The position numbers and the translations under genes are program-made. Under the pieces are notes generated by a model. It saw nothing but the letters and a program-made list of their open reading frames with translations. It ran no database searches and was not told the DNA's origin. From Candidatus Staskawiczbacteria bacterium RIFCSPHIGHO2_01_FULL_39_25 (GTDB taxonomy: Bacteria; Patescibacteriota; Minisyncoccia; Minisyncoccales; Staskawiczbacteraceae): DNA of 64,000 nucleotides. Positions 3,378 to 57,380 of the stretch are shown here, in pieces. The stretch is from contig MHOO01000003.1 of assembly GCA_001820095.1 (NCBI GenBank), positions 987-64,986 on the forward strand, read 5' to 3'. Every line of letters begins with the position of its first letter. The first letter of the stretch is position 1.

Positions 3378-3794
3378 GTGCCAACAATACACCAGTTAAT
3401 TAAAAAACCCAGAAAAAGCATACAAGCCAAAAAGAAGGGCGTGGCTTTGCATTACGGTTTTAATGTATTGCAAAACAAGCCTTCGCACTATCCATCTCCG
3501 TTTAAAAGGGGGGTATGCATCAAGGTATTTACCCAAACTCCTAGAAAACCAAACTCTGCGTTAAGAAAAGTAGCCAGGGTTAAATTGTCAAATGGCATGG
3601 AGGTAACCGCCTATATTCCAGGGGAAGGCCATAATTTGCAAGAACACTCAGTGGTATTAATTAGGGGGGGAAGAGTAAAGGACTTGCCCGGAGTCAGATA
3701 CCACATTGTGAGAGGTGTGCTAGATACTACAGGGGTTGAAAACAGGAAGCAGGGAAGGTCAAGGTATGGGTCAAAGATGCCTAAAGCTAAATAA
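3378..3794 (+). CDS. rpsL: 30S ribosomal protein S12
   Basis: GTG start; [11 protein letters not shown]...[18 protein letters not shown]. Confidence 0.97.
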
Positions 3795-3821
3795 TTTTCA
3801 AATTGTAAATTGTAAATTCAC

Positions 3822-4292
3822 ATGCGAAGGGCCTATAAAAAACACAAAGTTGCCCCGGACACCTTATACCAAGACGTACAGGTTGCCCAATTGATCAACA
3901 AGGTGATGACCCAGGGGAAAAAGTCAACCGCACAAAAAATTGTGTACATGGCTTTTGATGCCATAAAACAAAAAACCCAAAAAGAGCCCTTGGAGGTTTT
4001 CAAGCAAGCGGTTGAAAATGCTTCTCCCGTATTAGAGGTAAAGCCAAAGAGGATCGGGGGAGCCACGTATCAGGTACCTATGGAGGTGCGGCAGGAACGG
4101 AGGATCTTTTTATCGTTAAAATGGATTATTGACGGAGCAAGGTCTGGAAAAGGCAAATCAATGGCAGAAAAGCTTAGCCAGGAGATCATGAACGTAGCCA
4201 ACAACGAAGGCATGGCAATGAAACGGAAAAACGATATGCATAGAATGGCAGAGGCAAACAAGGCTTTTGCTCATTTTGCGCGCTCTCGCTAG
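3822..4292 (+). CDS. rpsG: 30S ribosomal protein S7
   Basis: 156 aa; [15 protein letters not shown]...AFAHFAR. Confidence 0.97.
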
Positions 4293-4404: not shown

Positions 4405-6480
4405 ATGAACAGAAGTCATCCTTTAGAAAAACTACGTAACTTCGGAATTATCGCTCACATTGACGCGGGAAAAACAACGGTTTCCGAGCGCCTTTTGTTT
4501 TATACGGGAGTAAGCCATAAAATCGGGGAAGTGCACGAAGGCGATACCGTCATGGACTGGATGCCTCAGGAACGCGAGCGCGGTATTACGATTACCGCAG
4601 CCGCCATTACTATGCAATGGAAAGGCATTCAAATGAACCTTATTGATACCCCCGGCCACATTGACTTTACGGCCGAGGTACAGCGCTCCCTGCGCGTATT
4701 AGACGGCGCTGTGGTAGTGTTTGACGGCGTAGCCGGAGTTGAGCCTCAATCAGAAACGGTATGGCGCCAGGCTGACAAATATGGCACGCCAAGGATTTGT
4801 TTTATCAATAAGCTGGACAGAATGGGTGGAAGTTTTGAAAAGTCATATCAGTCTATTTTAGATAAATTGACGAAAAACGCCGTGGCTATGACCATTCCCA
4901 TTGGAGAAGAAGAACATTTATCAGCCGTAATTGATTTACTGAAAATGAAAGCCATTTATTTTGAGGGCGAGAAAGGAGAAATAGTGGTAGAAAAAGAAAT
5001 TCCGGCGGATATGGTGGGAAAAGCAAAAGCCTGGAGGGAAAAAATGGTAGACCGTATTGCCGGGGAAGACGATGCCTTAACAAATAAATTACTGGGCGGT
5101 GAAGAAATTTCAAACGAAGAACTTATGGCGGCTATGCGAAAAGCTTGCCTGGCGTTTAAGCTGGTGCCGGTATTTTGCGGTTCGGCTTTAAAAAACAAGG
5201 GTACCCAATTTATTTTAGATGCCGTCATTGACTATTTGCCATCGCCTCTAGATATTGGTTTTGTAAAAGGAACCGACCCCAAAACCGGAGCTGAAATTGA
5301 AAGGAAATTTTCTGACACAGAGCCATTTGCAGCTTTGGTGTTTAAAGTTGCCACGGATCCCTTTGTAGGGCAACTTACTTTTTTCAGGGTATATTCAGGC
5401 GTATTAAATAAAGGAACCTATTTATTGAATTCCGTCACCGGAGAACAGGAAAGAATTGCACGGATTTTAAGGATGAAATCCAACTCGCGGGAAGAATTGG
5501 ATGTGATTTACGCTGGCGAAATTGGAGCTACGGTTGGTTTAAAAAATACCATTACCGGCCACACCTTGTGCGATAAGGAAAACCCGGTGGTGCTGGAAAA
5601 AATTTCATTTCCTGAACCGGTTATTTCTATGCGGGTTGAGCCAAAAACCAAGGCTGACCAGGAGAAGCTTATTATGTCTATTCGGAAATTGACCCAGGAA
5701 GACCCAACCTTCAGGATTAAAGAAGATATTGAAACGGGTGAAACTATTATTTCTGGCATGGGCGAACTACACTTAGATATTATTCAAGATCGGCTCAGGC
5801 GTGAATTTAATGTAGACGCAAACTTCGGCAAGCCGCAAGTGGCGTACCGTGAAACGATTACCGCAGAGTCAGAGGCTGAAGAAAAGTATGTGCGCCAATC
5901 CGGTGGAAAGGGGCAATATGGACATGTACGATTAAGGTTAAAGCCTTTGGAGCGAGGCACGGGTTTCCAATTTGTTGATGAAATTAAAGGAGGGGCTATT
6001 CCAAAAGAGTTTATCAAGCCGACCGAAAAGGGCGTGATTGAAGCGCTTGATAAGGGAATTATAGCCGGGTATCCCATGGTTGACGTTGAAGTTACGCTTT
6101 ACGATGGAAGCTTCCACGAAGTGGACTCTTCTGAATTTGCCTTTAAAATTGCCGGATCCATGGCTGTGCAAGCAGGGGCTAAAAAAGCTAAACCGGTTAT
6201 TTTGGAACCCATTATGAAAACCGAAGTAATTACTCCGGATGCTTTTTTTGGAACGGTTATTTCAGATTTAAGCTCTAGAAGAGGGAAAATTGAAGAAACC
6301 AAAGAACGGATGGGAATGAAAGTATTGGATGCTATGGTGCCGTTGTCCGAGATGTTTGGATATGCAACAGCGTTAAGAAGCTTAACAGAAGGCCGAGCAT
6401 CGTTTACTATGGAATTTAATAAATACGAGATTGTTCCAAATAATGTAGCACAGCAAATTATGGAAGGGAAAGTGAAATAA
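4405..6480 (+). CDS. fusA: Elongation factor G
   Basis: [27 protein letters not shown]. The start is moved to ATG 4405 because the upstream ORF extension lies in repeat B1. Confidence 0.97.
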
Positions 6481-6666: not shown

Positions 6667-7860
6667 ATGGCAGAAAAATTTGAGAGGTCCAAGCCTCACG
6701 TAAATATTGGTACCATCGGCCACGTTGACCATGGAAAAACCACGTTGTCAGCCGCAATTATGAAAGTTTCAGGATTGCGCGGTTTTAAGCATACTGAAGC
6801 TGATGTGGATAAAATTGACGCATCTCCGGAAGAAAAGGCACGAGGGGTGACGATTTCTATTACCCACTTGGAAACCGAAACTGCAAAAAGGCACTATGCC
6901 TTGATTGACTGCCCAGGACACGCTGACTACATTAAAAATATGATTACGGGAGCTGCCCAGATGGACGGCGGAATTTTATTGGTTTCTGCTCCAGATGGCC
7001 CTATGCCTCAAACCAAAGAGCACATTCTTTTAGCAAGACAGGTGGGATTACCATCATTGGTGGTATTTATGAATAAAGTTGATATGGTTGATGATCCTGA
7101 AATTTTAGACTTGGTTGAGTCAGAAGTGAGGGAATTATTGAAAAAATATGGGTTCCCAGGAGATGAAACTCCAATTATTAGAGGTTCTGCCTTAAAAGCA
7201 TTATCGGCATCTTCTGTTGATGATCCAGCCGTCAAGCCAATTGTAGAACTGCTTGACGCCGTAGACAGTTATATCCCTGAACCAGTAAGAGAATTAGAAA
7301 AGCCATTTGCCATGGCTATTGAAGACGTGTTCTCCATTGAAGGAAGGGGAACGGTAGCTACGGGAAGAATTGAAAGAGGCGTTGTGCATCCTAACGATGA
7401 AGTTGAAATTATAGGTATCAGGCCGACCCAAAAAACGGTAGTGGTTTCCGTTGAAATGTTCCAAAAGAGCTTAGACGAAGGAAGGGCGGGAGATAATGTG
7501 GGCATTTTATTGAGAGGCTTGAAGAAAGAAGATATTGAACGAGGCCAGGTGCTGGCAAAGCCGGGTTCTATTACCCCTCATACTGAATTTGATAGCGAAG
7601 TATATGTATTAAGCAAGGATGAAGGCGGAAGGCATACGCCATTTTTCACCGGTTATAAGCCTCAGCTTTACATTAGAACTTCTGACATTACCGGAGACGT
7701 AACCTTGCCAGAAGGAACCGAAATGGTAATGCCCGGAGATACCGCAAACCTGAAAGTTAAATTAATTGTGCCGGTAGCATTGGAAGAAAAAGGAAAGTTT
7801 GCTATTAGGGAAGGTGGAAAGACTGTGGGGGCGGGAGTGGTAACAAAGATCACCAAGTAA
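6667..7860 (+). CDS. tuf: Elongation factor Tu
   Basis: [22 protein letters not shown]. Confidence 0.98.
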
Positions 7861-7868
7861 ATTTTCAC

Positions 7869-8252
7869 GTGATGATGGCTCTTAAAAAAGCAACCATAAA
7901 ACCAAAAAAGGCAAAAGCAGAATCTCCGAAAGAGGAAGCGGTAGTTGTTATGCCCAAGCTTAGGATTAAGCTTAAGGCTTACGACCATAAGATTATAGAT
8001 AGTTCGGTCAGGCAGATTATTGATATTGCCAACCGCAGCGGCGTAGAAGTAGTTGGACCGGTGCCCTTGCCAACCGAAATATTAAAATACACGGTGAACC
8101 GATCTACTTTTGTCCATAAAAATGCCAGAGAGCAGTTTGAAATGAGGGTTCACAAAAGAGTCATTGACATCATAAATCCTAATCCTGAAATTATTGAAGC
8201 ATTGCGGGATTTAAACTTGCCATCCGGGGTTGACATCACCATCAAAATTTAA
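7869..8252 (+). CDS. rpsJ: 30S ribosomal protein S10, with a Lys-rich N-terminal extension if the GTG 7869 / ATG 7872 start is real
   Basis: RIKLKAYDHKIIDSS...VHKRVIDI. An alternative start at M28 (7950) would give a canonical length. Confidence 0.93.
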   Translation: MMMALKKATIKPKKAKAESPKEEAVVVMPKLRIKLKAYDHKIIDSSVRQIIDIANRSGVEVVGPVPLPTEILKYTVNRSTFVHKNAREQFEMRVHKRVIDIINPNPEIIEALRDLNLPSGVDITIKI

Positions 8253-11394: not shown

Positions 11395-11727
11395 ATGAGC
11401 AGGAGTTTAAAAAAAGGTCCGTTTGTGGATCAAAAATTAATAGAGAAGGTCTTAAAGGTAAGGAAAGAAGAAAAGGTTATTATTAAGACTTGGGCACGAT
11501 ATTCAACTATTTCTCCTGAAATGGTAGGGTTTACCTTTGGCGTGCATAATGGGAAGGAATTTGTTCCGGTATATGTAGGAGAGGATATGGTGGGGCACAA
11601 GTTAGGAGAATTTGCTCCTTCTACCAAGTTTTCAAGGCATGGAGGACGAATGCAGAAAGAGTTAGAGCAAAGATCTGAACAAGCCACCGCGGTAAAAACA
11701 GAAGCAGTAACAAAACCAGCAAAATAA
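11395..11727 (+). CDS. rpsS: 30S ribosomal protein S19 (with C-terminal extension)
   Basis: [12 protein letters not shown]...[13 protein letters not shown]. Confidence 0.95.
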
Positions 11728-11808
11728 CAATTGACAATTGACAATTGACAATTGACAACGTTTTCTAAAATTCGTTGGTCAAATGTTAAATGTCAAAGGT
11801 CAAATGTA
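11728..11808. repeat. Heptamer-array hairpin, family A, (ACAATTG)n / (GTCAAAT)n, copy 1
   Basis: Begins at the nucleotide after the rpsS TAA. Four ACAATTG units, an acg...cgt loop, then a GTCAAAT-type right arm. Confidence 0.9.
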
Positions 11809-11811
11809 GTA

Positions 11812-12291
11812 ATGGAAGTAAAAGTTTCATTGAACAATTTAAGAACGGCGCCACGAAAGTCACGGGAAGTGGTTGATTTAATACGGAATAAAAATGTGGC
11901 ACAAGCTAGGAGCCTCCTTGAGTTTACGGTTAGAAGATCAGCAGAACCTATACTAAAGCTTTTAAATAGCGCGGCAGCTTCGGCAGTACATGATTTTAAA
12001 TTAGAAGAATCTAATTTATACATTTCTAAAGTAACCGTAGATGAGGGGCCGAAATTAAAAAGATGGCATCCTATGTCCCGAGGCAGAGCATATCCTATTA
12101 TCAAAAGAACGTCGCATATTACTCTGATATTGTCAGAGAAATCCGAAGACGGGAGTTTCGGCAGAGCCGAAAACTCTCGCGTCTCGCAAGCACGAAATCC
12201 GAAATCCGAAACCGCCCCAACATTAAAGATTGTTAAAAAAAGCAAGCCAAATCTAAAATCTAAAACCAAGAAAATTAAAAAAAATAAATAA
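11812..12291 (+). CDS. rplV: 50S ribosomal protein L22 with a C-terminal extension of about 50 aa that reads through a family C repeat arm
   Basis: MEVKVSLNNLRTAPRKSREVVDLIR...RTSHITLILSEK core, then SEDGSFGRAENSRVSQARNPKSE... encoded by repeat sequence. Confidence 0.92.
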   Translation: MEVKVSLNNLRTAPRKSREVVDLIRNKNVAQARSLLEFTVRRSAEPILKLLNSAAASAVHDFKLEESNLYISKVTVDEGPKLKRWHPMSRGRAYPIIKRTSHITLILSEKSEDGSFGRAENSRVSQARNPKSETAPTLKIVKKSKPNLKSKTKKIKKNK

Positions 12292-12354: not shown

Positions 12355-13029
12355 ATGACTCACAAGGTACATCCAAAAGCATTTAGAATAAAAGGAATGG
12401 AGGATTTCAATATCCGCGGTTTTTATGGCAATAAAATGCCTCAGTATTTAGAGGAAGACTTTTTAATTAAGGATTTTCTAAGGGATAAATTATCGGAAGC
12501 GTCGGTTGCAAATATAGAAATAGAGCATTCTGCAAGTAAATTGAATATTATTATTGAAACAGCAAGGCCAGGGCTGATTATAGGGCGAGGAGGAGAAGGA
12601 GTAGAAATATTAAAGAAAGCCATAGAGCAGAAATTAAAAAATTTGAGAAAAACAAGCATTGGGGCTGCGTTAAAGTCTCAGGTGGGGCAAGTAAAAATAG
12701 ATATTAAAGAAATTAAAAACCCGTGGATTTCTGCGATGCTGGTTGCCCAGATGGCTGCTCAGCAAATTGAAAAAAGGATTCCTTTCAGGCAAGTATTAAA
12801 AAGAAGCATAGAGCGGGTGATGCAGAATAAAGAAGTGAAAGGCATAAAAATGGAGGTCTCAGGAAGATTAAACGGCATTGAAATTGCACGAAAAGAATGG
12901 TTAAAGCAAGGCAGAATGCCCCTGCAAACCATACGGGCAGATATTGATTATGCCCAAACGGAAGCGTATTGCACCTATGGAGCCATTGGGGTAAAAGTAT
13001 GGCTATATAAAGGAGAAAAGTTTGAATAA
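12355..13029 (+). CDS. rpsC: 30S ribosomal protein S3
   Basis: KVHPKAFRI...RPGLIIGRGGEG...SGRLNGIEIAR. Confidence 0.96.
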   Translation: MTHKVHPKAFRIKGMEDFNIRGFYGNKMPQYLEEDFLIKDFLRDKLSEASVANIEIEHSASKLNIIIETARPGLIIGRGGEGVEILKKAIEQKLKNLRKTSIGAALKSQVGQVKIDIKEIKNPWISAMLVAQMAAQQIEKRIPFRQVLKRSIERVMQNKEVKGIKMEVSGRLNGIEIARKEWLKQGRMPLQTIRADIDYAQTEAYCTYGAIGVKVWLYKGEKFE

Positions 13030-13110
13030 CAATTGACAATTGACAATTGACAATTGACAACGGTGCATTTAGCTCGTTGGTCAAATGTTAAATGTTAAAA
13101 GTCAAATGTA
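13030..13110. repeat. Heptamer-array hairpin, family A, copy 2
   Basis: TAA|CAATTGACAATTGACAATTGACAATTGACAACG...GGTCAAATGTTAAATGTTAAAAGTCAAATG. Confidence 0.9.
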
Positions 13111-13124
13111 TAAGCATGAGCTTA

Positions 13125-13532
13125 ATGATGCCGAAAAAAGTAAAACACCGAAAGTGGCATAAGGGAAAGACTAAAGGCGTGGAAACAAGAGCAACGGAAT
13201 TGAATTTTGGTAGTTTTGGCTTAAAGGCAATGGGGACTAAATGGATAACCGCCCGCCAAATTGAATCAGCTCGGCGTTACATTATCAGATACATGAAAAA
13301 GGGAGGCAAGTTATGGGTAAGGATTTTCCCAGACAAGCCGGTAACTTCAAAAGGGGAAGAAGTGCCGTTGGGAGGAGGCAAAGGGGCGGTTCACCATTAT
13401 GTATACCCTATAAAACCAGGAAGAATGATTTTTGAAGTGGATGGATTAAAAGAGGAGGTGGCCAGGGAGGCCTTAGTGGGAGCCAGCATCAAGTTGCCAA
13501 TTAAGACAAAATTTGTTAAAAGAGAGAATTAA
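13125..13532 (+). CDS. rplP: 50S ribosomal protein L16
   Basis: MMPKKVKHRKWHKG...ITARQIESARR. The upstream ATGs lie in the repeat arm. Confidence 0.95.
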   Translation: MMPKKVKHRKWHKGKTKGVETRATELNFGSFGLKAMGTKWITARQIESARRYIIRYMKKGGKLWVRIFPDKPVTSKGEEVPLGGGKGAVHHYVYPIKPGRMIFEVDGLKEEVAREALVGASIKLPIKTKFVKREN

Positions 13533-13613
13533 CAAATTTTGTCCTTAAGACTAATTTGTTAAAAGAGAGAATTAACAAATTTTGTCCTTAAGACTAATTT
13601 GTTAAAAGAGAGC
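13511..13613. repeat. 43-bp tandem repeat, 2.4 copies; the first copy is the 3' end of rplP
   Basis: atttgttaaaagagagaattaacaaattttgtccttaagacta starts at 13511, 13554 and (partial) 13597. Each unit contains the 10-bp hairpin aatttgttaa/ttaacaaatt. Confidence 0.95.
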
Positions 13614-13721
13614 AGTAGGATAGTCTATAAAGCTTCTGCGTAGTTTAGCGTCAGTTTAGCGGAGACTCCGCAAAACCAACGCGAAACATAACGCAAAACA
13701 GACGCGAAAGAATTTACAAAA
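13614..13721. repeat. Imperfect hairpin of GCGT/ACGC-containing short units (rplP-rpmC spacer)
   Basis: tctgcgtagtttagcgtcagtttagcgga opposed to tccgcaaaaccaacgcgaaacataacgcaaaacagacgcga. Confidence 0.7.
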
Positions 13722-20299: not shown

Positions 20300-21013
20300 A
20301 TGTCAAAGCAAGTTATTATTTTATTCGGGCCGCCGGGGGCGGGAAAAGGCACGCAGTCAGAGCTCTTATCTGAAAAGATGGGGCTGTATTTATTTGAGAC
20401 CAGCAAAATTCTAGAAAAGGAGTTTAAAAAAGCAGAAGATATGCCAGGAGATTCCCCTGAACGGTTTGTAGAAATTGAAGGCGAAAAATTTGATGTATTA
20501 AATGAAAAAGAAATTTGGAAAAAAGGGGAATTATGCAGTCCGCCGTGGGTAACCTATCTTACGATGAAAGAGTTTAAACGATTACATGATGATGGCGATA
20601 ATTTAATTATTGCGGGATCTCCAAGAACCGTTTACGAAGCCGAACGGGAGATGCCTCTTTTGGCTGAATTATATGGCAAGGAACATATAAAAATAGTACT
20701 AATAGAAATTTCAGCGGATGTAACGGTATTCAGGAACACGCATAGGAAGATTTGCGAGTTAATGCGCCACTCTATTTTATTTAATAAAGAAACCGAAACG
20801 CTGACGATTTGCCCTTTAGACGGTTCTAAATTAATGAAACGCAAAGATCTAGATGATCCCGAAACCATAAAAACAAGGCTTGAACAATATAAAGCAAGAA
20901 CCCTGCCGTTATTCAATTATTTTAAAGAGAATAATTTTAACGTCCATAAAATCAATGGAGAGGGAAGTGTGGCAAAGGTGCATGAAGAAATACTGCGAAT
21001 AGTGGAAGTGTGA
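20300..21013 (+). CDS. adk: Adenylate kinase (long form)
   Basis: MSKQVIILFGPPGAGKGTQ P-loop. The TGA stop is part of the GTGAAT terminus of repeat B7. Confidence 0.85.
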   Translation: MSKQVIILFGPPGAGKGTQSELLSEKMGLYLFETSKILEKEFKKAEDMPGDSPERFVEIEGEKFDVLNEKEIWKKGELCSPPWVTYLTMKEFKRLHDDGDNLIIAGSPRTVYEAEREMPLLAELYGKEHIKIVLIEISADVTVFRNTHRKICELMRHSILFNKETETLTICPLDGSKLMKRKDLDDPETIKTRLEQYKARTLPLFNYFKENNFNVHKINGEGSVAKVHEEILRIVEV

Positions 21014-21146
21014 ATATAGAATCTCATATCTTGAATCTGGAATACCTGCCTGCGCAGGCAGGGAATAAAAGAATACTGAATGTAAAAATTCACATTCTAA
21101 ATTCATTATTCAATTCAAGCTACAAGATACAAAATTCAAGATTCAA
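21009..21146. repeat. MITE-like palindromic element, family B, copy 7, with a GC-rich apical palindrome
   Basis: GTGTGAATATAGAATCTCATATCTTG...; apex cctgcctgcgcaggcagg at 21045-21062. Confidence 0.85.
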
Positions 21147-21151
21147 TTTAG

Positions 21152-26598: not shown

Positions 26599-26847
26599 AT
26601 GAATCAAAACGAAGGTACCAATAGCGACCAAAATAGCAAGAAAATTATAAAATGCGAAGGTGTTGTTATGGAGGCTTTGCCAAACGCCTTTTTTAGGGTA
26701 TTATTAAGCGACGGCAGAGAGATTATAGGATTTTTATCGGGTAAAATGAGGCTTAATAAAATCAAGATTTTAACGGGCGATAAGGTAACCATAGAAATGA
26801 CGCCCTATGACGAGAAGAAAGGAAGGATAGTGTATAGGCTAAAATAG
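26599..26847 (+). CDS. infA: Translation initiation factor IF-1
   Basis: [52 protein letters not shown]. Confidence 0.93.
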
Positions 26848-26850
26848 CCA

Positions 26851-26933
26851 ACAATTGACCATTGACAATTAACCATTGACAACGTTTTTAAAAATTCGTT
26901 ATGTCAAATGTTAAATGTCACATGTCAAATGTT
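26851..26933. repeat. Heptamer-array hairpin, family A, copy 7
   Basis: acaattgaccattgacaattaaccattgacaacg-tttttaaaaatt-cgttatgtcaaatgttaaatgtcacatgtcaaatgtt. Confidence 0.9.
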
Positions 26934-26938
26934 ATATT

Positions 26939-27055
26939 ATGAAGGTCAGGCCATCAATAAAAAAAATTTGCAATGACTGCCAGATTGTAAAAAGAGAGGG
27001 AAATTTATACGTTATTTGCAAAAAAAATCCAAAACATAAACAACGCCAAGGCTAA
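26939..27055 (+). CDS. rpmJ: 50S ribosomal protein L36 (38 aa; below the ORF-track cutoff)
   Basis: Own translation: [38 protein letters not shown]. Confidence 0.9.
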
Positions 27056-44179: not shown

Positions 44180-44253
44180 GCGGGCATCGTATAGTGGCAG
44201 TACGTAACCTTCCCAAGGTTAAAGTGTGAGTTCGATTCTCATTGCCCGCTCCA
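44180..44253 (+). tRNA. tRNA-Gly (anticodon CCC) with encoded CCA
   Basis: Acceptor GCGGGCA/TGCCCGC, anticodon arm TAACC-TTCCCAA-GGTTA, T-arm GTGAG-TTCGATT-CTCAT, then T-CCA. Confidence 0.9.
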
Positions 44254-44357
44254 CTAGAAAACTAATCGGCTTTTTATCGAGGATTTTGACGGCCACGCGA
44301 AGCGCGGCCCACGGTTTTTGTAAGGGGAGAACCGTTCCGTCTGTTCCGAAAAGTCGC

Positions 44358-44385
44358 GCCTCGCGGTTTTGCAAAATGAGGTTCG
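44358..44385. repeat. Left copy of a 28-bp inverted repeat, the core of a diverged GC-rich element of about 130 bp
   Basis: gcctcgcggttttgcaaaatgaggttcg is the exact reverse complement of 45288-45315. Confidence 0.9.
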
Positions 44386-44416
44386 AGCCGACGATTTCTT
44401 TGATTGCAATAACGAA

Positions 44417-44447
44417 TAAAAAAATCCCCAACTTTGGTAAGTTGGGG
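44417..44447 (-). terminator. Terminator of the minus-strand membrane-protein operon
   Basis: ccccaactt-tggt-aagttgggg, with a T-run on the minus strand. Confidence 0.7.
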
Positions 44448-44470
44448 TCTGTTGTTTTTCGACTGCTCTA

Positions 44471-44740
44471 TTAGTGAGTAGCAGTCAATTCCTCGTGTTT
44501 CTGATCTTGAGAATTGTCGGGACTGTATTGCCCCTCTGTTTTCTCAAGTAGGTATTGAATGAATCCTCCGATGCCAGCGCCGATTAATCCAACGCCGAGA
44601 GCAATGACAGGGGTGGGATCCCCCAGTTTTTCGTTTTCATGGTGGATCGCAACCACAATCAGTGCGACCACCCCCAAAACGAAGGGGAATACGTAGAGCA
44701 GAATTAATCCCCACGTCATTTCTCTGATCTTGGTCATCAT
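44471..44740 (-). CDS. Small two-TM membrane protein
   Basis: 89 aa with two hydrophobic helices (one Gly-rich, GVGLIGAGIGGF). The codon region is GC-richer than its surroundings. Confidence 0.55.
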   Translation of the reverse strand: MMTKIREMTWGLILLYVFPFVLGVVALIVVAIHHENEKLGDPTPVIALGVGLIGAGIGGFIQYLLEKTEGQYSPDNSQDQKHEELTATH

Positions 44741-44752
44741 GGCTTGCCTCCT

Positions 44753-45169
44753 TTAGAGTTTGGTGAACGAAACGCAGAACACAACGATCCATACGAGAAT
44801 AAATCCAGCTGGTAAAAAACTAAGGAGCCTATGGAATGTTGGCCCTCTATTGATTCTGTCCCATTCGGGGCCAATGAACACGTTGACTGTATCTGGTTCT
44901 TCCGCGTGCTTCATTTGTGCAAGCCGCGTCTGCCAGTATTCAACCCACTGTTGACTCTTCATGTTGATTAGAAACCATATCACTCCAATGATCATGCCAA
45001 ACAACCCTATGCTGAAAAACAACCCAAACCCTGCATCTCTCGTGAAAAGAACCGAGAGCATCGCCGAATTGATGATCATGAACATCTGGCTCCTTGACCA
45101 TCGTAACGTGACTTCCGTGTTACGCGACATTGCCATGCCAGTGTACATTGCTTTTTCGTCGTTTGTCAT
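44753..45169 (-). CDS. Three-TM membrane protein of unknown function
   Basis: 138 aa. RBS gggaga lies upstream and a consensus-like promoter lies at 45220-45248. Confidence 0.6.
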   Translation of the reverse strand: MTNDEKAMYTGMAMSRNTEVTLRWSRSQMFMIINSAMLSVLFTRDAGFGLFFSIGLFGMIIGVIWFLINMKSQQWVEYWQTRLAQMKHAEEPDTVNVFIGPEWDRINRGPTFHRLLSFLPAGFILVWIVVFCVSFTKL

Positions 45170-45219
45170 GCAAGTTTCTCCCTTCTGGGGATCGAGATTT
45201 GAATGTGCTACACTATCCT

Positions 45220-45248
45220 CTTATACCAAACTAAATACTAAATGTCAA
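45220..45248 (-). promoter_or_regulatory. Candidate promoter of the minus-strand membrane-protein operon
   Basis: On the minus strand: TTGACA (45248-45243), 17-nt spacer, TATAAG (45225-45220). Confidence 0.55.
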
Positions 45249-45287
45249 TTTTTTTTAAATCCAGGGCGAAGCAAAAACGAACGACGG

Positions 45288-45315
45288 CGAACCTCATTTT
45301 GCAAAACCGCGAGGC
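45288..45315. repeat. Right copy of the 28-bp inverted repeat
   Basis: cgaacctcattttgcaaaaccgcgaggc. Confidence 0.9.
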
Positions 45316-45420
45316 GGCCATCAGGCTACCGAGCGGAACGGAAATCTCGTTCAAAACGCACTGGGGAGCCGTTCGCGACGTCCGCCGGTTCGTCGGCCAA
45401 AAATCAAAATGTTTTATTGT

Positions 45421-45588
45421 GGAGTATATATACAACCACGCTAAAACCTATTTTGTGGAAAATTGACGAACGAACCGACGACGAACAAGACCGTATGCCC
45501 GCGGGCACACGGGGCGAAACAAACGACGAGCAAAAATTTTCTGGGCTGGGGGGAGAAAATTTTTGCCGTTAAGGCGAGTAAATTTTAA
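45421..45588. repeat. Left arm of a perfect 168-bp inverted repeat
   Basis: I reverse-complemented it by hand; it is identical at 168/168 positions to 47079-47246. Confidence 0.95.
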
Positions 45589-45633
45589 ATATTGAGAATT
45601 TAGATAAAAGATGATAATATATATGTAAATATT

Positions 45634-46548
45634 ATGAATCAAAAAGGTTTTATTCAAATACCTGTACTCGTCTCAATTATTGTGGGTGTTTTAATTTTGG
45701 GTAGTGGAGGATATTTTGGAGTAAAACAATATAGAAACTATCAATTAGAAAGAATTGAAAAAGAAAAAATTTATCAAACAGAAAAAGAAACTCAACAGCA
45801 AAAAGATTTGGAAGTTGAAAAGTTGAAAAAAGAGGTAGAGGAATTAAAAAATAAGAAACCAGAGGTTGTACAACAAACCATAGTTAAAGAAGTTATTGTG
45901 CCAAAAACAGAAATGGATCTTCCATCTATAATTAAACAATGGAGACCCAGAATAGTCTATATTGTTTGTGAATGGAGGTATTCTGATACTGGAGAAGTTT
46001 ATGCTCAAGGCAGCGGCTCAGGATTACTTTTTGCAAAATCTAAAGACAATTTAGCTTTACTTGTAATGACAAACAAACATGTTTTAGCGGATGGTCAATA
46101 TGTGGCAAGTTCGTGCGATATTTCTTTTCCTAGTTTAAATGAAACATTTAAGGTGAGTACAAATTCTTTGATGGAATCTGTTTCGGGACTTGACTGGGGA
46201 TTAATTCGTTTCCAATCTTCCAACGGATACTTGAATTCTCTTGTTGTATCTGGTCCCATTGAATCATATCCCTCTGTTTGTAAAAAACCTGCGTTAGTAG
46301 GAGATGAAATAGTTATTTTAGGTTATCCTGGAATTGGTTCTCAATCTGATATAACAGCGACAGAAGGAATAATCTCAGGGCGTGATGGAGATTATTACAT
46401 TACCTCTGCTAAAATCGATCGTGGTAATTCTGGTGGAGCTGCTATATCTTTAAAAGACAATTGCTATCTAGGTATTCCAAGTTTTGCACAAGTTGGTCAA
46501 ATAGAATCCTTGGGAAGGATTTTAGACATAGAAGCAGTGTATAAATAA
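45634..46548 (+). CDS. Membrane-anchored trypsin-like (S1/HtrA-type) serine protease with a coiled-coil linker
   Basis: N-terminal TM helix, EKEKIYQTEKETQQQKDLEVEKLKKEVEELK, then TNKHV (His) and DRGNSGGAA (Ser) motifs. Confidence 0.8.
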   Translation: MNQKGFIQIPVLVSIIVGVLILGSGGYFGVKQYRNYQLERIEKEKIYQTEKETQQQKDLEVEKLKKEVEELKNKKPEVVQQTIVKEVIVPKTEMDLPSIIKQWRPRIVYIVCEWRYSDTGEVYAQGSGSGLLFAKSKDNLALLVMTNKHVLADGQYVASSCDISFPSLNETFKVSTNSLMESVSGLDWGLIRFQSSNGYLNSLVVSGPIESYPSVCKKPALVGDEIVILGYPGIGSQSDITATEGIISGRDGDYYITSAKIDRGNSGGAAISLKDNCYLGIPSFAQVGQIESLGRILDIEAVYK

Positions 46549-46561
46549 TCACAGTATTATA

Positions 46562-47068
46562 ATGACAAATGAACTAAAAACATGTAGCGATTGCGGTCAA
46601 GAACTTAGGAGGTGTTTGAAATGCAAACAAGTGATAAAAATTGGTGATGATAAAAGAAAAAGTATTGGATTTAAACTTCTTATTATCTTTATAGTTTTAT
46701 TTTTTGTTTCGATTGTTTTGCTGAATTTTAAATTTGATATATTCTATAAATTGATAGCAGAAAATCAAAGTTTTTTTGGGCAAATAATTTTTATCTTTGC
46801 ATTTTGCATATTAGGAATTTCTTCTAGGGCATTTAGTTTTTATTATAGAGCGAAAAGAGAAGGTTTTGCATGGAGGACATCTAACCCCCAGCAGGTATAT
46901 TTTGTTGAATATTTGATTATTAGTTTTGTAGCTTCGGTTTTTATATTCTCTATTCTAATAATCATGTCGTCGCTGCCAACTTATATTTTTTATCTATTGG
47001 GCGGTTCAGTTGGTATTGTGGCCGGATATAGAGGATATGCATTTTTAGACAATATGAGGATTGGATAG
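46562..47068 (+). CDS. Zinc-ribbon (CxxC-x6-CxxC) protein with four TM helices
   Basis: CSDCGQELRRCLKCKQ followed by hydrophobic helices. Confidence 0.6.
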   Translation: MTNELKTCSDCGQELRRCLKCKQVIKIGDDKRKSIGFKLLIIFIVLFFVSIVLLNFKFDIFYKLIAENQSFFGQIIFIFAFCILGISSRAFSFYYRAKREGFAWRTSNPQQVYFVEYLIISFVASVFIFSILIIMSSLPTYIFYLLGGSVGIVAGYRGYAFLDNMRIG

Positions 47069-47078
47069 TAAAACATAT

Positions 47079-47246
47079 TTTAAAATTTACTCGCCTTAAC
47101 GGCAAAAATTTTCTCCCCCCAGCCCAGAAAATTTTTGCTCGTCGTTTGTTTCGCCCCGTGTGCCCGCGGGCATACGGTCTTGTTCGTCGTCGGTTCGTTC
47201 GTCAATTTTCCACAAAATAGGTTTTAGCGTGGTTGTATATATACTC
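47079..47246. repeat. Right arm of the perfect 168-bp inverted repeat
   Basis: See 45421-45588. It contains the internal palindrome tgcccgcgggca. Confidence 0.95.
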
Positions 47247-47339: not shown

Positions 47340-47410
47340 GCCGCTTTAGCTTAGTGGCAAAGCAATGCTTTCGTAAAGCATGGACGCAAGTTCGATTCTT
47401 GCAAGCGGCT
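47340..47410 (+). tRNA. tRNA-Thr (anticodon CGT)
   Basis: Acceptor GCCGCTT/AAGCGGC, anticodon arm ATGCT-TTCGTAA-AGCAT, T-arm GCAAG-TTCGATT-CTTGC. Confidence 0.9.
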
Positions 47411-47446
47411 CTTGATATAACCTTCTCAATATGGTATTAGCTAGAT

Positions 47447-47712
47447 AGCACCAATTTTTAGGGCAGGGTCGGGGGACCTCTGCCTAGCACGACGGCTGAT
47501 GAGACGGTTTGAGTTACCTTGCCAAGGTTGAAACTGCGGCAATGTTTCTCCCTCAACAAGCGGAAGCTTGTTTTATACTGTGACAAGGGCAGGCATTTTT
47601 AGGTTCCGGGCCTGAACCCGCAGCGTATGCTGCTTAGCAGTATATGTTGAGGCCAAAACCTTGGCTCTTAGTCGTCAGGGGCTGTGTGGAATATTACACA
47701 CAGCCCTTTTTT
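47447..47712 (+). ncRNA. Candidate structured RNA or leader of unknown class, ending in a strong terminator upstream of cfa
   Basis: Helices: aacaagc-GGAA-gcttgtt (47555-47572), tatactg/cagtata (47574-80/47638-44), cctcaac/gttgagg (47551-57/47646-52), gcagc-gtat-gctgc (47620-33), gccaaggtt/aaccttggc (47521-29/47657-65). Terminator at 47678-47712. Confidence 0.4.
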
Positions 47713-54225: not shown

Positions 54226-55929
54226 CTAAGCCGGTGTCATAGAGAAAGCGGAGGTAATTTTACTAGAAATACCTTGATACCATTCAGCTTCATTGGAGGC
54301 TTTTAGTGCTAAGCTTGCCATTTCGCTCAGGAGTACTTTTATATCCTGAGAATTTGGTTTATTTTGAGCGTTTTTTGCATTTTCAAGCAATCTTCTAAAG
54401 TCATCCAGGGCTAATGGTATAATCGTTGAGCGACCACCGTAATATTGAACATCGGTACGCGAAAGGACAAAGTAATGGGCAAGAGTAGCAGGATTTATTT
54501 GTGGTGCTATAAAAATTGCAAAAACTGGCTTTGTAGTATTCTTCCGATGATTACCATAATGCCGCGATACCGGCTCTCCCTCCATTTCATATTGTCGTTG
54601 CCCTGATGACAAAGTTACCTCAACTATGGCTTCAAAATCAGCATATTTACATACAATATCTGGCGTATTACCTGGTGCTGCGTAAAGTGGCGCACCGTGA
54701 TTATCAACTCGAAAGTTTCCTTCTATTGTTCCGTCATCAAGCATTTCCATAGCTCTCCACGTATTCCATTCAAGAAATAGAGCAGGGTCAGCTATGTCAG
54801 AATTACGAATCCGGTCAAAAGTATCTTGGATATCACTGTATTCCTCATAAGTACGAAGCTTACTTCTTTCTTGGCCAAGTATACGTTCGAGGTTTTTACT
54901 TAGCAATGCAGAGAAAATATCTTTAAGCTCCTCAATCGTCTTTGTGTGTAATGTTTCAATCGGATATTCACTGCTTTGCAAGGCAATATTCTGTATTAAA
55001 CCATCCATATTATCTGTGAGAAGTATCGGAGTTGTTGCTGGAAATAAATAATTTACATATTCTTCTTTTGAATCAAAATCTTGTGATTTTCTTGAAACTG
55101 TCTCAAGGATATAGTCTACATCTTTAGCTCGCTCCGGCATAACAAAAACCCGTAATGATTTTGCATTAAAAGTAAAAAGGCCTGTTGCTCTTAGATATCT
55201 TATCGAAGCATCGGCATAATCAGTATGATTGCGTTGCTTGATTCTAATAAATGATTTTAGCGAAGAGTCGTCTGATTCCCTTGTTGAGATTTCACCGCTT
55301 CTTATTTCTTCTGCAAATAGCGAAGTGAGCTCCTGTTCAAAATATTGTGCAATAAATTCTCTATAATTCACTTGCCGTCGCTCTCTGTTTTTTCGAGCCG
55401 CTTTTCGAAAGTTCTCAATTTTACGCTGGATGGTTTTATAATTTTTATAATTCGTAAGCTTAATAACAAATAAAGCAATTTCCGTTTTACTAAGACCTTC
55501 AAGGTCGCGGACCAGCCGCATTAATTCGAGGTAAGGTTTAACTGCAAATTTTCTATTTTCATCGATATGGTAGGGTGATGGCAATTGAAATTTTAACATC
55601 TGTCTAAGCAGAGTTTCCTCCGGACGGTTACCGTAAATAAAACTATGACCAGCTGGTGTCAACGCTATGACTGGTTTAAGATCAACAAAGCCAAGTGATT
55701 TTGGTCCACGAGTTATGCGATCTCTGGCACTAAAAGCTGGATCAGAAGATTGACTGCCTTCAAAAAATGGCTGGTGTACCAATGCTTCATAATATTCGCG
55801 CTGCGTTTCTGCAGTCCATTTTTTACCTGAAAAGTTTTCGATGAGAAAACGTATCTCATCTTTCATTTTGAAAGGTGATCTTGGAGAAGTTACAAAGAAA
55901 ATAGTCTTTTTGCCTGTAATGATGGCCAT
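54226..55929 (-). CDS. AlwI/BstNBI-family type II (IIS or nicking-type) restriction endonuclease
   Basis: Blocks match my recollection of N.BstNBI/PleI/MlyI: SPRSP, AFSARDR, GLSKTEIALF, DYADASIRYLRATGLF, PGNTPDIVCKYADFEAIVEVTLSSGQRQYEMEGEPVSRHY, IFIAPQIN. Confidence 0.78.
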   Translation of the reverse strand: MAIITGKKTIFFVTSPRSPFKMKDEIRFLIENFSGKKWTAETQREYYEALVHQPFFEGSQSSDPAFSARDRITRGPKSLGFVDLKPVIALTPAGHSFIYGNRPEETLLRQMLKFQLPSPYHIDENRKFAVKPYLELMRLVRDLEGLSKTEIALFVIKLTNYKNYKTIQRKIENFRKAARKNRERRQVNYREFIAQYFEQELTSLFAEEIRSGEISTRESDDSSLKSFIRIKQRNHTDYADASIRYLRATGLFTFNAKSLRVFVMPERAKDVDYILETVSRKSQDFDSKEEYVNYLFPATTPILLTDNMDGLIQNIALQSSEYPIETLHTKTIEELKDIFSALLSKNLERILGQERSKLRTYEEYSDIQDTFDRIRNSDIADPALFLEWNTWRAMEMLDDGTIEGNFRVDNHGAPLYAAPGNTPDIVCKYADFEAIVEVTLSSGQRQYEMEGEPVSRHYGNHRKNTTKPVFAIFIAPQINPATLAHYFVLSRTDVQYYGGRSTIIPLALDDFRRLLENAKNAQNKPNSQDIKVLLSEMASLALKASNEAEWYQGISSKITSAFSMTPA

Positions 55930-57380
55930 GTTATTTCTTTTTTATTCACCGATTTACCATTTGCCTGAAGCGGGTCATTGCCGATAGATAAAAATGTCTT
56001 AATACGATTTTCTGAAACATCAAATGCTTTATTAGATATATCGCAGCCGATGAAATTACATTTTGCTTTAATAGCCGCTATTGCTGAAGAACCACTGCCG
56101 AGAAAAGGGTCGCAAATAGTGTAATTATCACCAGCACTTGCCTTAATCATCATATCAAATACTTCTACTGGTTTCTGGGTTGGATATTGAGCATTGTGTA
56201 TTCTCTTTATTTTCCAAACGTCAGGTATTGATTTACTGCTTAATTTTCTCTTATTACTATTTGTAGCAAACATAATAAATTCGTGCTGTCTCCTAAAGTA
56301 GTGTCCCATGCCTACATTTACTTTATCCCACACAATTACATTTTTAACATCAAAATATTTACGCATTAAAGGCGCTAGCGAAAGTAGGGAAAATGAATCA
56401 AACATGATGTACAAATGTCCGGTATCTTTTTTAAGAACTCTTTTACATTCAGCTAGAAATTCTTTGTAATTTTCTTCAGTATCCTGAAATTCAGCAAACC
56501 ATCGACCATTCTCTTTTCCCTTATCGGCATATTTACCAACTATTCTTCCGCTATGTAGCATCAAATGATTATTCATGCCAGAGTATGCCGGATCAGTGGT
56601 TATCAAATCTATACTGTGATCATCTAACTTTTTAAGGAATCTAATACAGTCGTCTTGAACAATTCTGACGGTTTTGCCTGATGTATAATCTTGTTCATAT
56701 TTCCTGATCGGCGCATCAGATTTCAATGTTTCTGAATTTTGTTTTTTCTCGGTAATGATTTCCGGAATATCTACCCCAGTTTCTTGGATTACATCAATCA
56801 CTATTCCTTGTATTGCAACGTCGCGGCCACTTCTAAAAATCAGAGGTTCCATGCTTTTATTTGCTGGCTGTAAACGTATTTGTCCTTTTTCTTTATAAAA
56901 TTTCTTAAGTGTTGCTTCGTGGTTGTCGATTAGTGCTACCACTTTTTGTCCATTGTTGGCGGTCGTCTGCTGCCGAACCAAAACAATGTCTCCGTTATTA
57001 ATATTTTCATCAATCATACTATCACCAACAACGCGAAGCGCATAGACCTCTGATGAAGCTGGAATTTTACTTTTTGGTACTGCAATTATCTCCTTATTTT
57101 CAATCGCTTCTATGGGTTGGCCGGCAGCAATAGTTCCCAGTAAGGGAACCTTAATCATCGGCTCAGATTCATAGATATCAATCGCGCGAGCATTATTACC
57201 AGCCTTTTTCAAGTATCCCTTTTTAGCAAGAGTTTTTATGTGTTGATGAACAGTAGAAACGGCGGAAAGTTTGAGTCCAGCACAAATTTCCTCAAGTGTG
57301 GGGGGATATTTTTTCTTGCTGATAAACTTCTTAATGAAGTCCAATACCTCTTTTTGTCTTTTCGTAATTGGTAATGGCAT
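55890..57380 (-). CDS. Fusion protein: full-length LexA (wHTH plus S24 autopeptidase) joined to a beta-class N6A/N4C DNA methyltransferase
   Basis: aa 1-200 are LexA-like: TKRQKEVLDFI, cleavage site IAAG (A86-G87), GDSM (S121), TLKKF (K159). aa ~235-496 are the MTase: TDPAY (263-266), YPTQKP, DPFLGSGSS. The 3' end overlaps the endonuclease start by 40 nt. Confidence 0.85.
   Translation of the reverse strand: MPLPITKRQKEVLDFIKKFISKKKYPPTLEEICAGLKLSAVSTVHQHIKTLAKKGYLKKAGNNARAIDIYESEPMIKVPLLGTIAAGQPIEAIENKEIIAVPKSKIPASSEVYALRVVGDSMIDENINNGDIVLVRQQTTANNGQKVVALIDNHEATLKKFYKEKGQIRLQPANKSMEPLIFRSGRDVAIQGIVIDVIQETGVDIPEIITEKKQNSETLKSDAPIRKYEQDYTSGKTVRIVQDDCIRFLKKLDDHSIDLITTDPAYSGMNNHLMLHSGRIVGKYADKGKENGRWFAEFQDTEENYKEFLAECKRVLKKDTGHLYIMFDSFSLLSLAPLMRKYFDVKNVIVWDKVNVGMGHYFRRQHEFIMFATNSNKRKLSSKSIPDVWKIKRIHNAQYPTQKPVEVFDMMIKASAGDNYTICDPFLGSGSSAIAAIKAKCNFIGCDISNKAFDVSENRIKTFLSIGNDPLQANGKSVNKKEITWPSLQAKRLFSL

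Follow-up and report, generated by a model that had tools for sequence, protein, structure and literature searches.

What is a two-gene cassette, closed in by a perfect inverted repeat of 168 nucleotides (nt), doing in the core chromosome of a member of the Patescibacteria? The question is raised by a 64-kb stretch of contig MHOO01000003.1 from Candidatus Staskawiczbacteria bacterium RIFCSPHIGHO2_01_FULL_39_25, which was analysed over its whole length and is called the window here. The window is core chromosome, with genes for ribosomal proteins, SecY, EF-Tu and EF-G, MreB and GatCA, and 60 of its 65 open reading frames (ORFs) lie on the plus strand; the cassette stands between tRNA-Gly(CCC) (44180-44253) and tRNA-Thr(CGT) (47340-47411). 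Our reading, to which we give a probability of roughly 60%, is that a small integrative element, now decayed, sits at the 3' end of tRNA-Gly(CCC) and that the two copies of the repeat are its cargo arms, B and B'. The cassette itself is ordinary cargo. The interesting part is the architecture of the wider island group, widespread in Patescibacteria and apparently undescribed, which wraps its recombinase and its cargo each in long, near-identical inverted repeats.

A repeat scan of the window returns two arms that are complementary at 168 of 168 positions around an interior of 1489 nt (Table 1), a match that is impossible by chance and the longest inverted repeat in the 64 kb, the next being 87 nt at 90%. 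The original prediction had described this perfect repeat; it placed the right arm correctly, set the left arm one base off and made the interior 1,490 nt. Its description of the arms as GC-rich is borne out by GC fractions of 0.452 in the arms, 0.316 in the interior and 0.389 in the window, and the CGAAC/GACGA motifs that it mentioned are present in arm B together with two hairpins (45491-45512 and 45529-45565). CGAAC/GTTCG pentamers reach 13.7 per kb in the non-coding DNA of the island described below (44254-44470, 45170-45589 and 47079-47246) versus 0.63 per kb in the window, a 22-fold enrichment, and motifs of this type may be protein-binding sites. (T/C)CGAAC motifs also lie 15-45 nt from the junction core in the arms of three other loci, designated L060, L097 and L111. 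There is no target-site duplication, as had been noted before: the left arm is preceded by ...ATTGTG and the right arm is followed by TGGTTT....

The same stretch turns up in assemblies from NCBI, ENA, JGI and Logan, made with several assemblers, and wherever a contig extends to both arm positions, both arms are present. The repeat is found in at least 15 independent contigs, five of which span both arms (the window, L001, L002, L003 and L011); all represent one strain, at least 99.97% identical, with a single-nucleotide polymorphism in one assembly, in one arm only. Metagenome assemblers do make palindromic contigs at such repeats. Contig L191 (1-7017) is a perfect palindrome with 2163-nt arms, 100% identical, around a HaeIII restriction-modification cargo, with its recombinase and two tRNAs mirrored; it is an assembler fold-back at an inverted repeat and a warning for short-read contigs at such loci. 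For the window, a spurious duplication of one arm is excluded for all practical purposes because both arms recur in independent assemblies from different assemblers, each joined to its own unique flank, and analogous repeats stand in the complete chromosome L060. Further copies of the arm were found neither in the window nor, with a 22-nt arm pattern (0 matches), in the metagenome and IMG/VR collections, a negative that weighs little for the collections, which apparently lack the source samples. One scaffold (L003/L012, 1-2011) joins DNA of 60-70% GC with a LysR regulator to window position 44287, 34 nt past tRNA-Gly and within the recombinase-tail relic described below; considered as a second insertion site, it was judged most likely to be chimeric. 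Insertion into a pre-existing palindrome, or a long palindromic target duplication (an IS1630-type idea cited in PMC2853133), was rejected as well because neither arm is a palindrome in its own right and the two copies are inverted relative to each other, not direct.

The case for an integrative element comes from relatives of the cassette's serine protease. We surveyed 80 loci from species-representative genomes and five further look-ups, 85 loci and 810 kb in all, and found 11 inverted-repeat pairs of at least 40 nt and at least 95% identity. Nine of the 11 bracket the protease cassette or a neighboring compartment (examples in Table 1), and the remaining two are both in L048, approximately 4 kb from the protease. 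A two-compartment type of island was defined from L060, L097, L170 and L201, and its intact members share one layout. Starting from a tRNA gene, an arm A, a large serine recombinase gene and an inverted arm A' form one compartment; this abuts a second in which arms B and B' enclose a cargo, often headed by an XRE regulator, and beyond B' the chromosome resumes. Arms A/A' measure 104-155 nt and arms B/B' 100-460 nt, mostly at 93.5-100% identity.

The clearest example is L060, which comes from a complete 888-kb chromosome. Its three junctions read ...GGTCCACCAAAG at the tRNA end, ...ACACCACCAAAG at the center when reverse-complemented and ...ACACCACAGAAA at the right end, so that a CCAC core is present at attL, the center and attR. 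From these sequences, the outer ends behave as attL and attR, and the central A'-B block is an inverted copy of the B'-A junction expected on excision. The arrangement is regular in other members. All eight complete recombinase genes of the clade that lie outside larger repeats (L060, L097, L170, L181, L191, L195, L201 and L205) are bracketed by an inverted repeat of 104-155 nt, 93.5-100% identical, that overlaps the last recombinase codons; L024 is the exception, its recombinase lying within a 329-nt repeat pair. The outer end of A overlaps the tRNA 3' end by 4-6 nt in 6/6 recombinase loci with flanking sequence, and in L060, L097, L170 and L201, the island stops at the outer end of B'.

Three further loci show B' joined straight to the 3' end of the recombinase gene (L024, 1746-3614; L153; and L212, 4330-4900). 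No tRNA was found between the two in L024 or L212, the loci that were scanned. The arm faces outward, and the L212 recombinase ORF runs on across the junction. This arrangement matches the predicted circular-junction form (attP). Recombinase-less copies like that of the window also exist elsewhere, since L150 (7101-13926) is a cargo compartment in which six genes lie inside a perfect 462-nt pair; no recombinase is adjacent, and 2 nt separate the outer end of the pair from the 3' end of tRNA-Val. In mobile islands of relatives, the protease is often paired with an XRE regulator. The cassette had been presented as a two-gene unit; the genes are as described, and the unit is one half of a two-compartment island whose layout recurs in many Patescibacteria. 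An oddity was seen in L020, where ARAGORN reports a tRNA with anticodon TTA (which would read UAA) at 5924-5997, immediately upstream of the protease gene; this tRNA lies inside a cassette with a 50-nt perfect inverted repeat that also contains a GIY-YIG nuclease gene.

Does the window hold the other half? The original prediction saw no recombinase nearby, and tblastn indeed finds no intact large serine recombinase in the 64 kb; what was missed is a C-terminal relic of approximately 53 residues on the minus strand at tRNA-Gly, together with an inverted copy that abuts the left cargo arm. Residues 463-507 of the L024 recombinase match 44410-44252 on the minus strand at 40% identity (tblastn, E=0.004). 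The translated relic in arm A, KEIVGSNLILQNREARLFGTDGTVLPLQKPWAALRVAVKILDKKPISFLVE, runs antisense into the 3' end of tRNA-Gly, which remains intact, as the recombinase tails of the relatives run into theirs, and shares the motif K-x-(I/V)-G-S-N-x-x-(I/L) with the tails of L097, L170, L195, L201 and L212; by eye, the L212 tail is recognizably similar to it at the DNA level. The second copy, A', reads AIRLPSGTEISFKTHWGAV...CFIVE past a 29-nt perfect inverted repeat, and both A and A' have 45 codons from motif to junction, with approximately 40% amino acid identity between them. The A' tail ends ...ATT GTG GAG; arm B opens with this final GAG codon as its bases 1-3, an overlap that parallels the 4-9 nt overlap of A' and B in L060, L097, L170 and L201. 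The 29-nt repeat brackets genes for an 89-aa and an 8xMP-family membrane protein (Table 1), the exact 89-aa sequence being found solely in contigs of the same strain, and segment 44254-45421 has a GC fraction of approximately 0.47, versus 0.39 for the window.

Because the relics abut the tRNA on one side and arm B on the other, the window island of approximately 3 kb, counted from the 3' end of tRNA-Gly(CCC), reads as relic arm A, the 89-aa and 8xMP genes and relic arm A', followed by B, the protease and zinc-ribbon genes and B', with tRNA-Thr beyond. By analogy with L060, L097, L170 and L201, the outer end of B' may be attR. The trinucleotide CTC, extended to CTCCAC at the first two junctions, occurs at 44248-44253, at the center (45419-45424, reverse complement) and at 47244-47246; the 3 nt common to all are too short for significance. 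The suspected link to mobile DNA is supported, both by recombinase-tail relics at a tRNA and by a recurrent island layout. The region is also variable, because the distant relatives L107 and L109 share its synteny (GatCA-DivIC...PrfB-ABC-FtsX) and have a small ORF and tRNA-Thr between DivIC and PrfB, without tRNA-Gly, the island or the cyclopropane-fatty-acid synthase (CMAS) gene. An exact empty site, of the sort envisaged earlier, was not found among homologs of the neighboring DivIC gene, which are from the same strain or from distant genera only.

A second line of evidence concerns the identity of the arms. The arms of L024, L042 and L097 are mutually homologous: those of L042 and L097 are 96-98.5% identical over approximately 134-152 nt, while their proteases share only 33% identity and no other part can be aligned. 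At least 120 metagenome contigs contain a 20-mer taken from these arms, which has no match in IMG/VR. Among the matches listed, two-copy contigs hold 28 inward-facing pairs, one direct pair and no other arrangement, and there are 91 single copies, 43 of which are no more than 200 nt from the end of a contig. In this arm family, conservation stops sharply on the inner, cargo side and on one side often runs on into the XRE gene; the recombinase is divergent beside the left arm in 13 of the 16 cases where it is visible. Two hairpins stand in the conserved core: in one, three adjacent pairs show compensatory changes; the other is invariant, precedes a T-run and faces inward. The enclosed cargo, varied and of the usual island kind, includes DNA methylases, restriction enzymes (such as the HaeIII system of L191), HNH nucleases, zinc ribbons and proteases, as well as P-type ATPase, AlaRS and LexA-like genes. 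Across the relatives, the two arms of an element are 98.8-100% identical, and between elements the arms are either too different to align or 87-98% identical, which argues for exchange between the arms of one element. Judged from the sequences, this identity would stem from gene conversion within the element and, with crossover, inversion; repeated recent duplication is the alternative.

Could the window arms also act in transcription? Read outward, either arm gives two hairpins followed by T-rich tracts; in arm B', this is the plus strand, directly 3' of the cargo operon. For the window-arm hairpins, folding is stronger in the outward direction (z = -2.6 vs -1.1), and one of them pairs perfectly, via G·U, on that strand only. 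Acting as outward-facing terminators, the arms would close the cargo operon in either orientation and shield neighbor genes; the right arm would end the protease operon as it stands, and the mirror arm would do so after a flip. We claim no transcriptional role shared with the large arm family because the clear terminator there faces inward.

Taken together, these observations suggest the following history. The island would have arrived by serine-recombinase integration at the tRNA. The recombinase body would then have been lost, leaving the two-gene membrane-protein operon in its place between the diverged tails A and A', and the cargo compartment would have stayed intact between perfect arms. 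B and B' may be kept identical by mutual recombination, gene conversion correcting one arm against the other and a crossover flipping the 1.49-kb interior; either process would depend on host homologous recombination because no recombinase is left. That the cargo arms are perfect beside decayed A and A' would mean that they still recombine, 168 bp being ample for RecA, or that they are younger.

Several observations weigh against this reading. The island has no intact recombinase and no XRE regulator, so that a 53-residue relic (E=0.004) and the layout carry its membership in the group. Nor could the window arms be matched to the arms of any relative: blastn at word sizes 7-9 and nhmmer with two profiles found no similarity to those of L020, L024, L042, L060 or L097 or to the family of at least 120 contigs, in which, moreover, the terminator points inward, opposite to the window. 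No exact empty site was found, and all assemblies of this locus represent one near-identical strain. A and A' are at approximately 40% amino acid identity while B and B' are perfect, a pattern that a recent B/B' duplication would explain as well as ongoing homogenization would. The core common to the three junctions is only 3-6 nt, and the inverted copy of its own junction region carried by this element type is unexplained. On a bolder view, which we put forward only tentatively, the inverted repeats would be no by-product: a novel class of serine-recombinase element would work through them, its circle carrying two inverted copies of one extended attachment region (approximately 300-450 nt), and the window cassette would be a fossil of this mechanism. 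Such a circle might flip or amplify as the 2-micron plasmid does, or integrate through either copy; alternatively, a single-stranded form might be taken up by naturally competent cells, pairing of A' with A and of B with B' folding a double-stranded attP. The inverted attachment copy might also supply accessory recombinase or regulator sites.

The most serious competitor to a decayed element is an invertible segment, also among the earlier candidates: a 1.49-kb cassette flipped in a programmed, phase-variable manner by RecA or by a recombinase encoded elsewhere, which would alter expression of the protease operon or its neighbors. Assemblies do present both orientations relative to the CMAS flank: that of the window in L001, L002, L003, L005, L006, L011 and L014, and the inverse, in which this flank is joined to the protease start, in L004/L013, L007 and L008. 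The same pattern recurs in a second, unrelated element (L199 vs L224), and the arms offer ample identity for homologous recombination. These two orientations are nevertheless no proof of inversion, because a flip between perfect arms creates no junction shorter than an arm and most assemblies used k<=141, so that their graphs cannot separate the isomers, and assemblers fold back at such repeats, as in L191. No contig holds the inverted form across both arms, many stopping inside an arm, and tblastn with large serine recombinases finds no invertase in the window. Nor would flipping have an obvious effect in cis, since the symmetrical arms enclose the promoter-like site. We consider programmed switching unlikely.

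Two other proposals fare worse. Long terminal inverted repeats around passenger genes with no transposase recall a non-autonomous foldback transposon or a miniature inverted-repeat transposable element, a mobile insertion cassette whose arms a transposase would recognize in trans, and the arm-bounded cargo of L150, with no adjacent recombinase, resembles such a unit. Against it, there is no target-site duplication, the window and the searched collections yield no other arm copies, and the outer end of the left arm is the end of a recombinase-tail copy, as in intact elements; in these, the unit inserted at a tRNA is the whole island, delimited by tRNA-type attachment junctions. The earlier idea of a self-standing foldback transposon is not supported, and we regard it as very improbable. 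Slightly less probable still is that the arms serve RNA, either as a spanning transcript with 168 bp of perfect double-stranded RNA, as had also been suggested, or as a small structured RNA encoded in the arm. The arms do contain stable hairpins, and in the large arm family one hairpin shows compensatory changes and the arm end, a hairpin and T-run, is what a small-RNA gene would have. Folding of the whole arm, however, is no better than that of shuffled controls (z = -0.9 and -1.8), and neither gathering nor relaxed thresholds brought up an Rfam family in the arms or their vicinity. No promoter was found upstream of the left arm, and terminator-like hairpins facing outward would stop a transcript spanning both arms, which leaves the double-stranded transcript without support.

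Both cargo genes of the original prediction, a serine protease and a CxxC-CxxC protein with four transmembrane segments, are present, as is the promoter-like site just inside the cassette; the protease gene starts 45 nt past arm B. The protease matches Pfam Trypsin_2 (E=1.1e-10), and a profile of its family matches the structures of DegP, DegQ, DegS and HtrA1 (E 1e-9 to 1e-5). Across an alignment of 28 relatives, H149 and S266 are invariant, D187 is present in at least 90% and several cysteines are conserved. The protein thus shares the trypsin fold and the His/Asp/Ser triad with HtrA/DegS (S1C) proteases and differs from them in its N-terminal membrane anchor and coiled coil, its conserved cysteines and the absence of a PDZ domain in a Pfam scan. 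By sequence, it is a PDZ-less relative and not a canonical HtrA, because the triad and the DegP/DegS/HtrA profile match are present and PDZ is absent. Homologs number 1,058 at E<=1e-5, the named ones all from Patescibacteria, and the exact sequence is annotated in NCBI as a hypothetical protein (Candidatus Staskawiczbacteria, Rifle aquifer). The zinc-ribbon membrane protein has only a weak double-zinc-ribbon match and belongs to a rare orphan family, with 10 cluster representatives at E<=1e-3 among 1.84 billion. No XRE gene heads the cargo compartment, and tblastn found no helix-turn-helix/XRE homolog in the window. An anti-phage defense assignment was considered and set aside; the scan gave a weak match of the protease domain to RT-Protease_XI and none for the other three island proteins.

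Table 1 Features of the window island and inverted repeats of related loci. Positions refer to the window or, for L060, to that locus.
Feature	Position or size	Strand	Basis and remarks
tRNA-Gly(CCC)	44180..44253	+	ARAGORN; Rfam 61.4 bits; 3' end = inferred attL
Arm A, relic of last ~50 large-serine-recombinase codons (KEIVGSNLILQNREAR...PWAAL...FLVE)	44252..44410	-	tblastn and motif
29-nt perfect inverted repeat, left copy	44357..44385		Repeat scan; encodes NLILQNREA of the recombinase tail
Hairpin scored as terminator on both strands	44426..44447		Terminator scan; downstream of 89-aa gene
89-aa membrane protein gene, no family assignment	44471..44740	-	Stands where part of the recombinase body would be
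138-aa 8xMP-family membrane protein gene (PF24838)	44753..45169	-	Pfam
Arm A', inverted diverged recombinase-tail duplicate (NLILQNREAAIRLPSGTEISFKTHWGAV...CFIVE)	45290..45424	+	Includes right 29-nt copy, 45288-45316
Arm B	45422..45589		Left copy of 168-nt perfect inverted repeat
Promoter-like site TTGAGA-17-TAATAT, TG upstream	45592..45620	+	Consensus match only; just inside cassette
Cargo gene 1, 304 aa, membrane-anchored coiled-coil HtrA/DegS-like S1 serine protease without PDZ	45634..46548	+	Pfam Trypsin_2
Cargo gene 2, 168 aa, N-terminal CxxC-CxxC zinc ribbon, then four transmembrane segments	46562..47068	+	ORF and family scan
Arm B'	47079..47246		Right copy of 168-nt repeat; outer end = inferred attR
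L020/L021 inverted repeat	50 nt		100%
L024 inverted repeat	329 nt		99.7%; plus third copy
L042 inverted repeat	141 nt		At both contig ends
L060 inverted repeats	299 nt and 124 nt		99.7% and 100%
L097 inverted repeats	245 nt and 120 nt		98.8% and 99.2%
L060 tRNA-Ala	3660-3733		
L060 arm A	3728-3851		124 nt, 100% to A'
L060 large serine recombinase, 501 aa	Between A and A'	-	
L060 arm A'	5291-5414		Overlaps B
L060 arm B	5411-5709		299 nt, 99.7% to B'
L060 cargo			83-aa XRE regulator, protease of same family, 206-aa protein
L060 arm B'	7830-8128		

Other features of the window were noted in passing. Between tRNA-Thr and the CMAS gene lie approximately 270 nt of GC-rich non-coding DNA (47425-47712, plus strand) that fold at -117 kcal/mol (z=-5.8 vs shuffled controls) and end in a strong terminator (47677-47708). 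This segment is absent from L107 and L109 and matches no Rfam family at threshold, with a weak Moco-riboswitch-like match at E=0.06; it could be an unclassified structured RNA or leader. Dozens of intergenic hairpins of 90-150 nt, built from tandem heptamers (AATTGAC x4 ... GTCAAAT x4; GAATCTn ... AGATTCn; and others), are spread over 4288-50120 on the coding strand, with z scores of -4 to -6 (for example at 11716-11816, 13018-13118, 26840-26941 and 21002-21150). They are probably the terminators of this lineage, and their modular heptamer build is unusual. Two large minus-strand ORFs at 54226-57380 stand out in an almost all-plus window and may be another acquired block, with no long inverted repeat seen around them; a match to an AlwI-type restriction endonuclease among the window ORFs, which the scan did not tie to a named ORF, probably belongs here. 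Lastly, an intergenic region at 13510-13617 has 2.5 tandem copies of a 43-nt unit, two of them perfect and one partial.

Patescibacteria, which are ultra-small bacteria, make up a large share of bacterial diversity and mostly cannot be cultured, with tiny genomes and poorly known means of gene exchange. The window leads to a type of compact island in this group, 3-10 kb long, that pairs one large serine recombinase and a small regulator with swappable cargo, such as restriction-modification systems, nucleases and membrane proteases, and that is abundant in groundwater and sediment metagenomes. The two-compartment repeat signature makes islands of this type, and what they carry, easy to search for, and it explains assembly breaks and fold-backs at these loci. 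It also raises a mechanistic question: why would an element of the serine-integrase kind retain its own attachment region a second time, in inverted form? Genome engineers, too, would take an interest in large serine integrases whose attachment regions are long and structured. For the window itself, the practical message is modest, in that the cassette is the cargo of a dead element and its orientation in short-read assemblies is not to be trusted.

How do these islands compare with known systems? Like tRNA islands and prophages of the phiC31/Bxb1 type, which also use large serine recombinases, the relatives' islands insert at the 3' end of a tRNA gene that the element rebuilds, with the recombinase gene at one junction, a short core at attL, attR and the deduced attP, and variable cargo that includes restriction-modification; in the window, by contrast, the recombinase is a relic. 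To our knowledge, no element of that class has been reported with an internal, inverted and near-identical copy of its whole attP region (120 + 300 nt), or with long inverted repeats around the recombinase gene and the cargo separately. In the G segment of phage Mu (Gin) and the C segment of phage P1 (Cin), small invertases acting with an enhancer switch alternative coding ends of tail-fiber genes; the C segment, with its inverted repeats of approximately 0.6 kb, is a precedent for long inverted repeats around an invertible segment beside a serine recombinase. The likeness lies in a unique segment of a few kilobases between long near-identical repeats, beside a serine recombinase in the intact relatives. 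Here, however, the enzyme is of the large integrase type, no switch of coding ends or promoter is apparent, and inversion is only putative. The yeast 2-micron plasmid has two 599-bp inverted repeats with FRT sites that split its circle into two unique segments, and its recombinase, FLP, is a tyrosine recombinase. The deduced L060-type circle would similarly carry two inverted copies of approximately 420 nt, each with the core, that separate a recombinase segment from a cargo segment; the 2-micron circle is a eukaryotic replicating plasmid, whereas no replication genes are seen here, and the likeness is one of layout only. A full-text literature search found no description of the two-compartment layout, the nearest being the transposon-like restriction-modification units of Furuta, Abe & Kobayashi (2010, PMC2853133), which occupy ordinary sites with 8-bp target duplications and have imperfect inverted repeats of 26-65 bp. 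Those units are likewise compact cassettes, often of restriction-modification genes, between long inverted repeats with no transposase inside; the islands described here differ in having no target duplication, in near-perfect arms of 100-460 nt and in their tie to serine-recombinase islands at tRNA genes.

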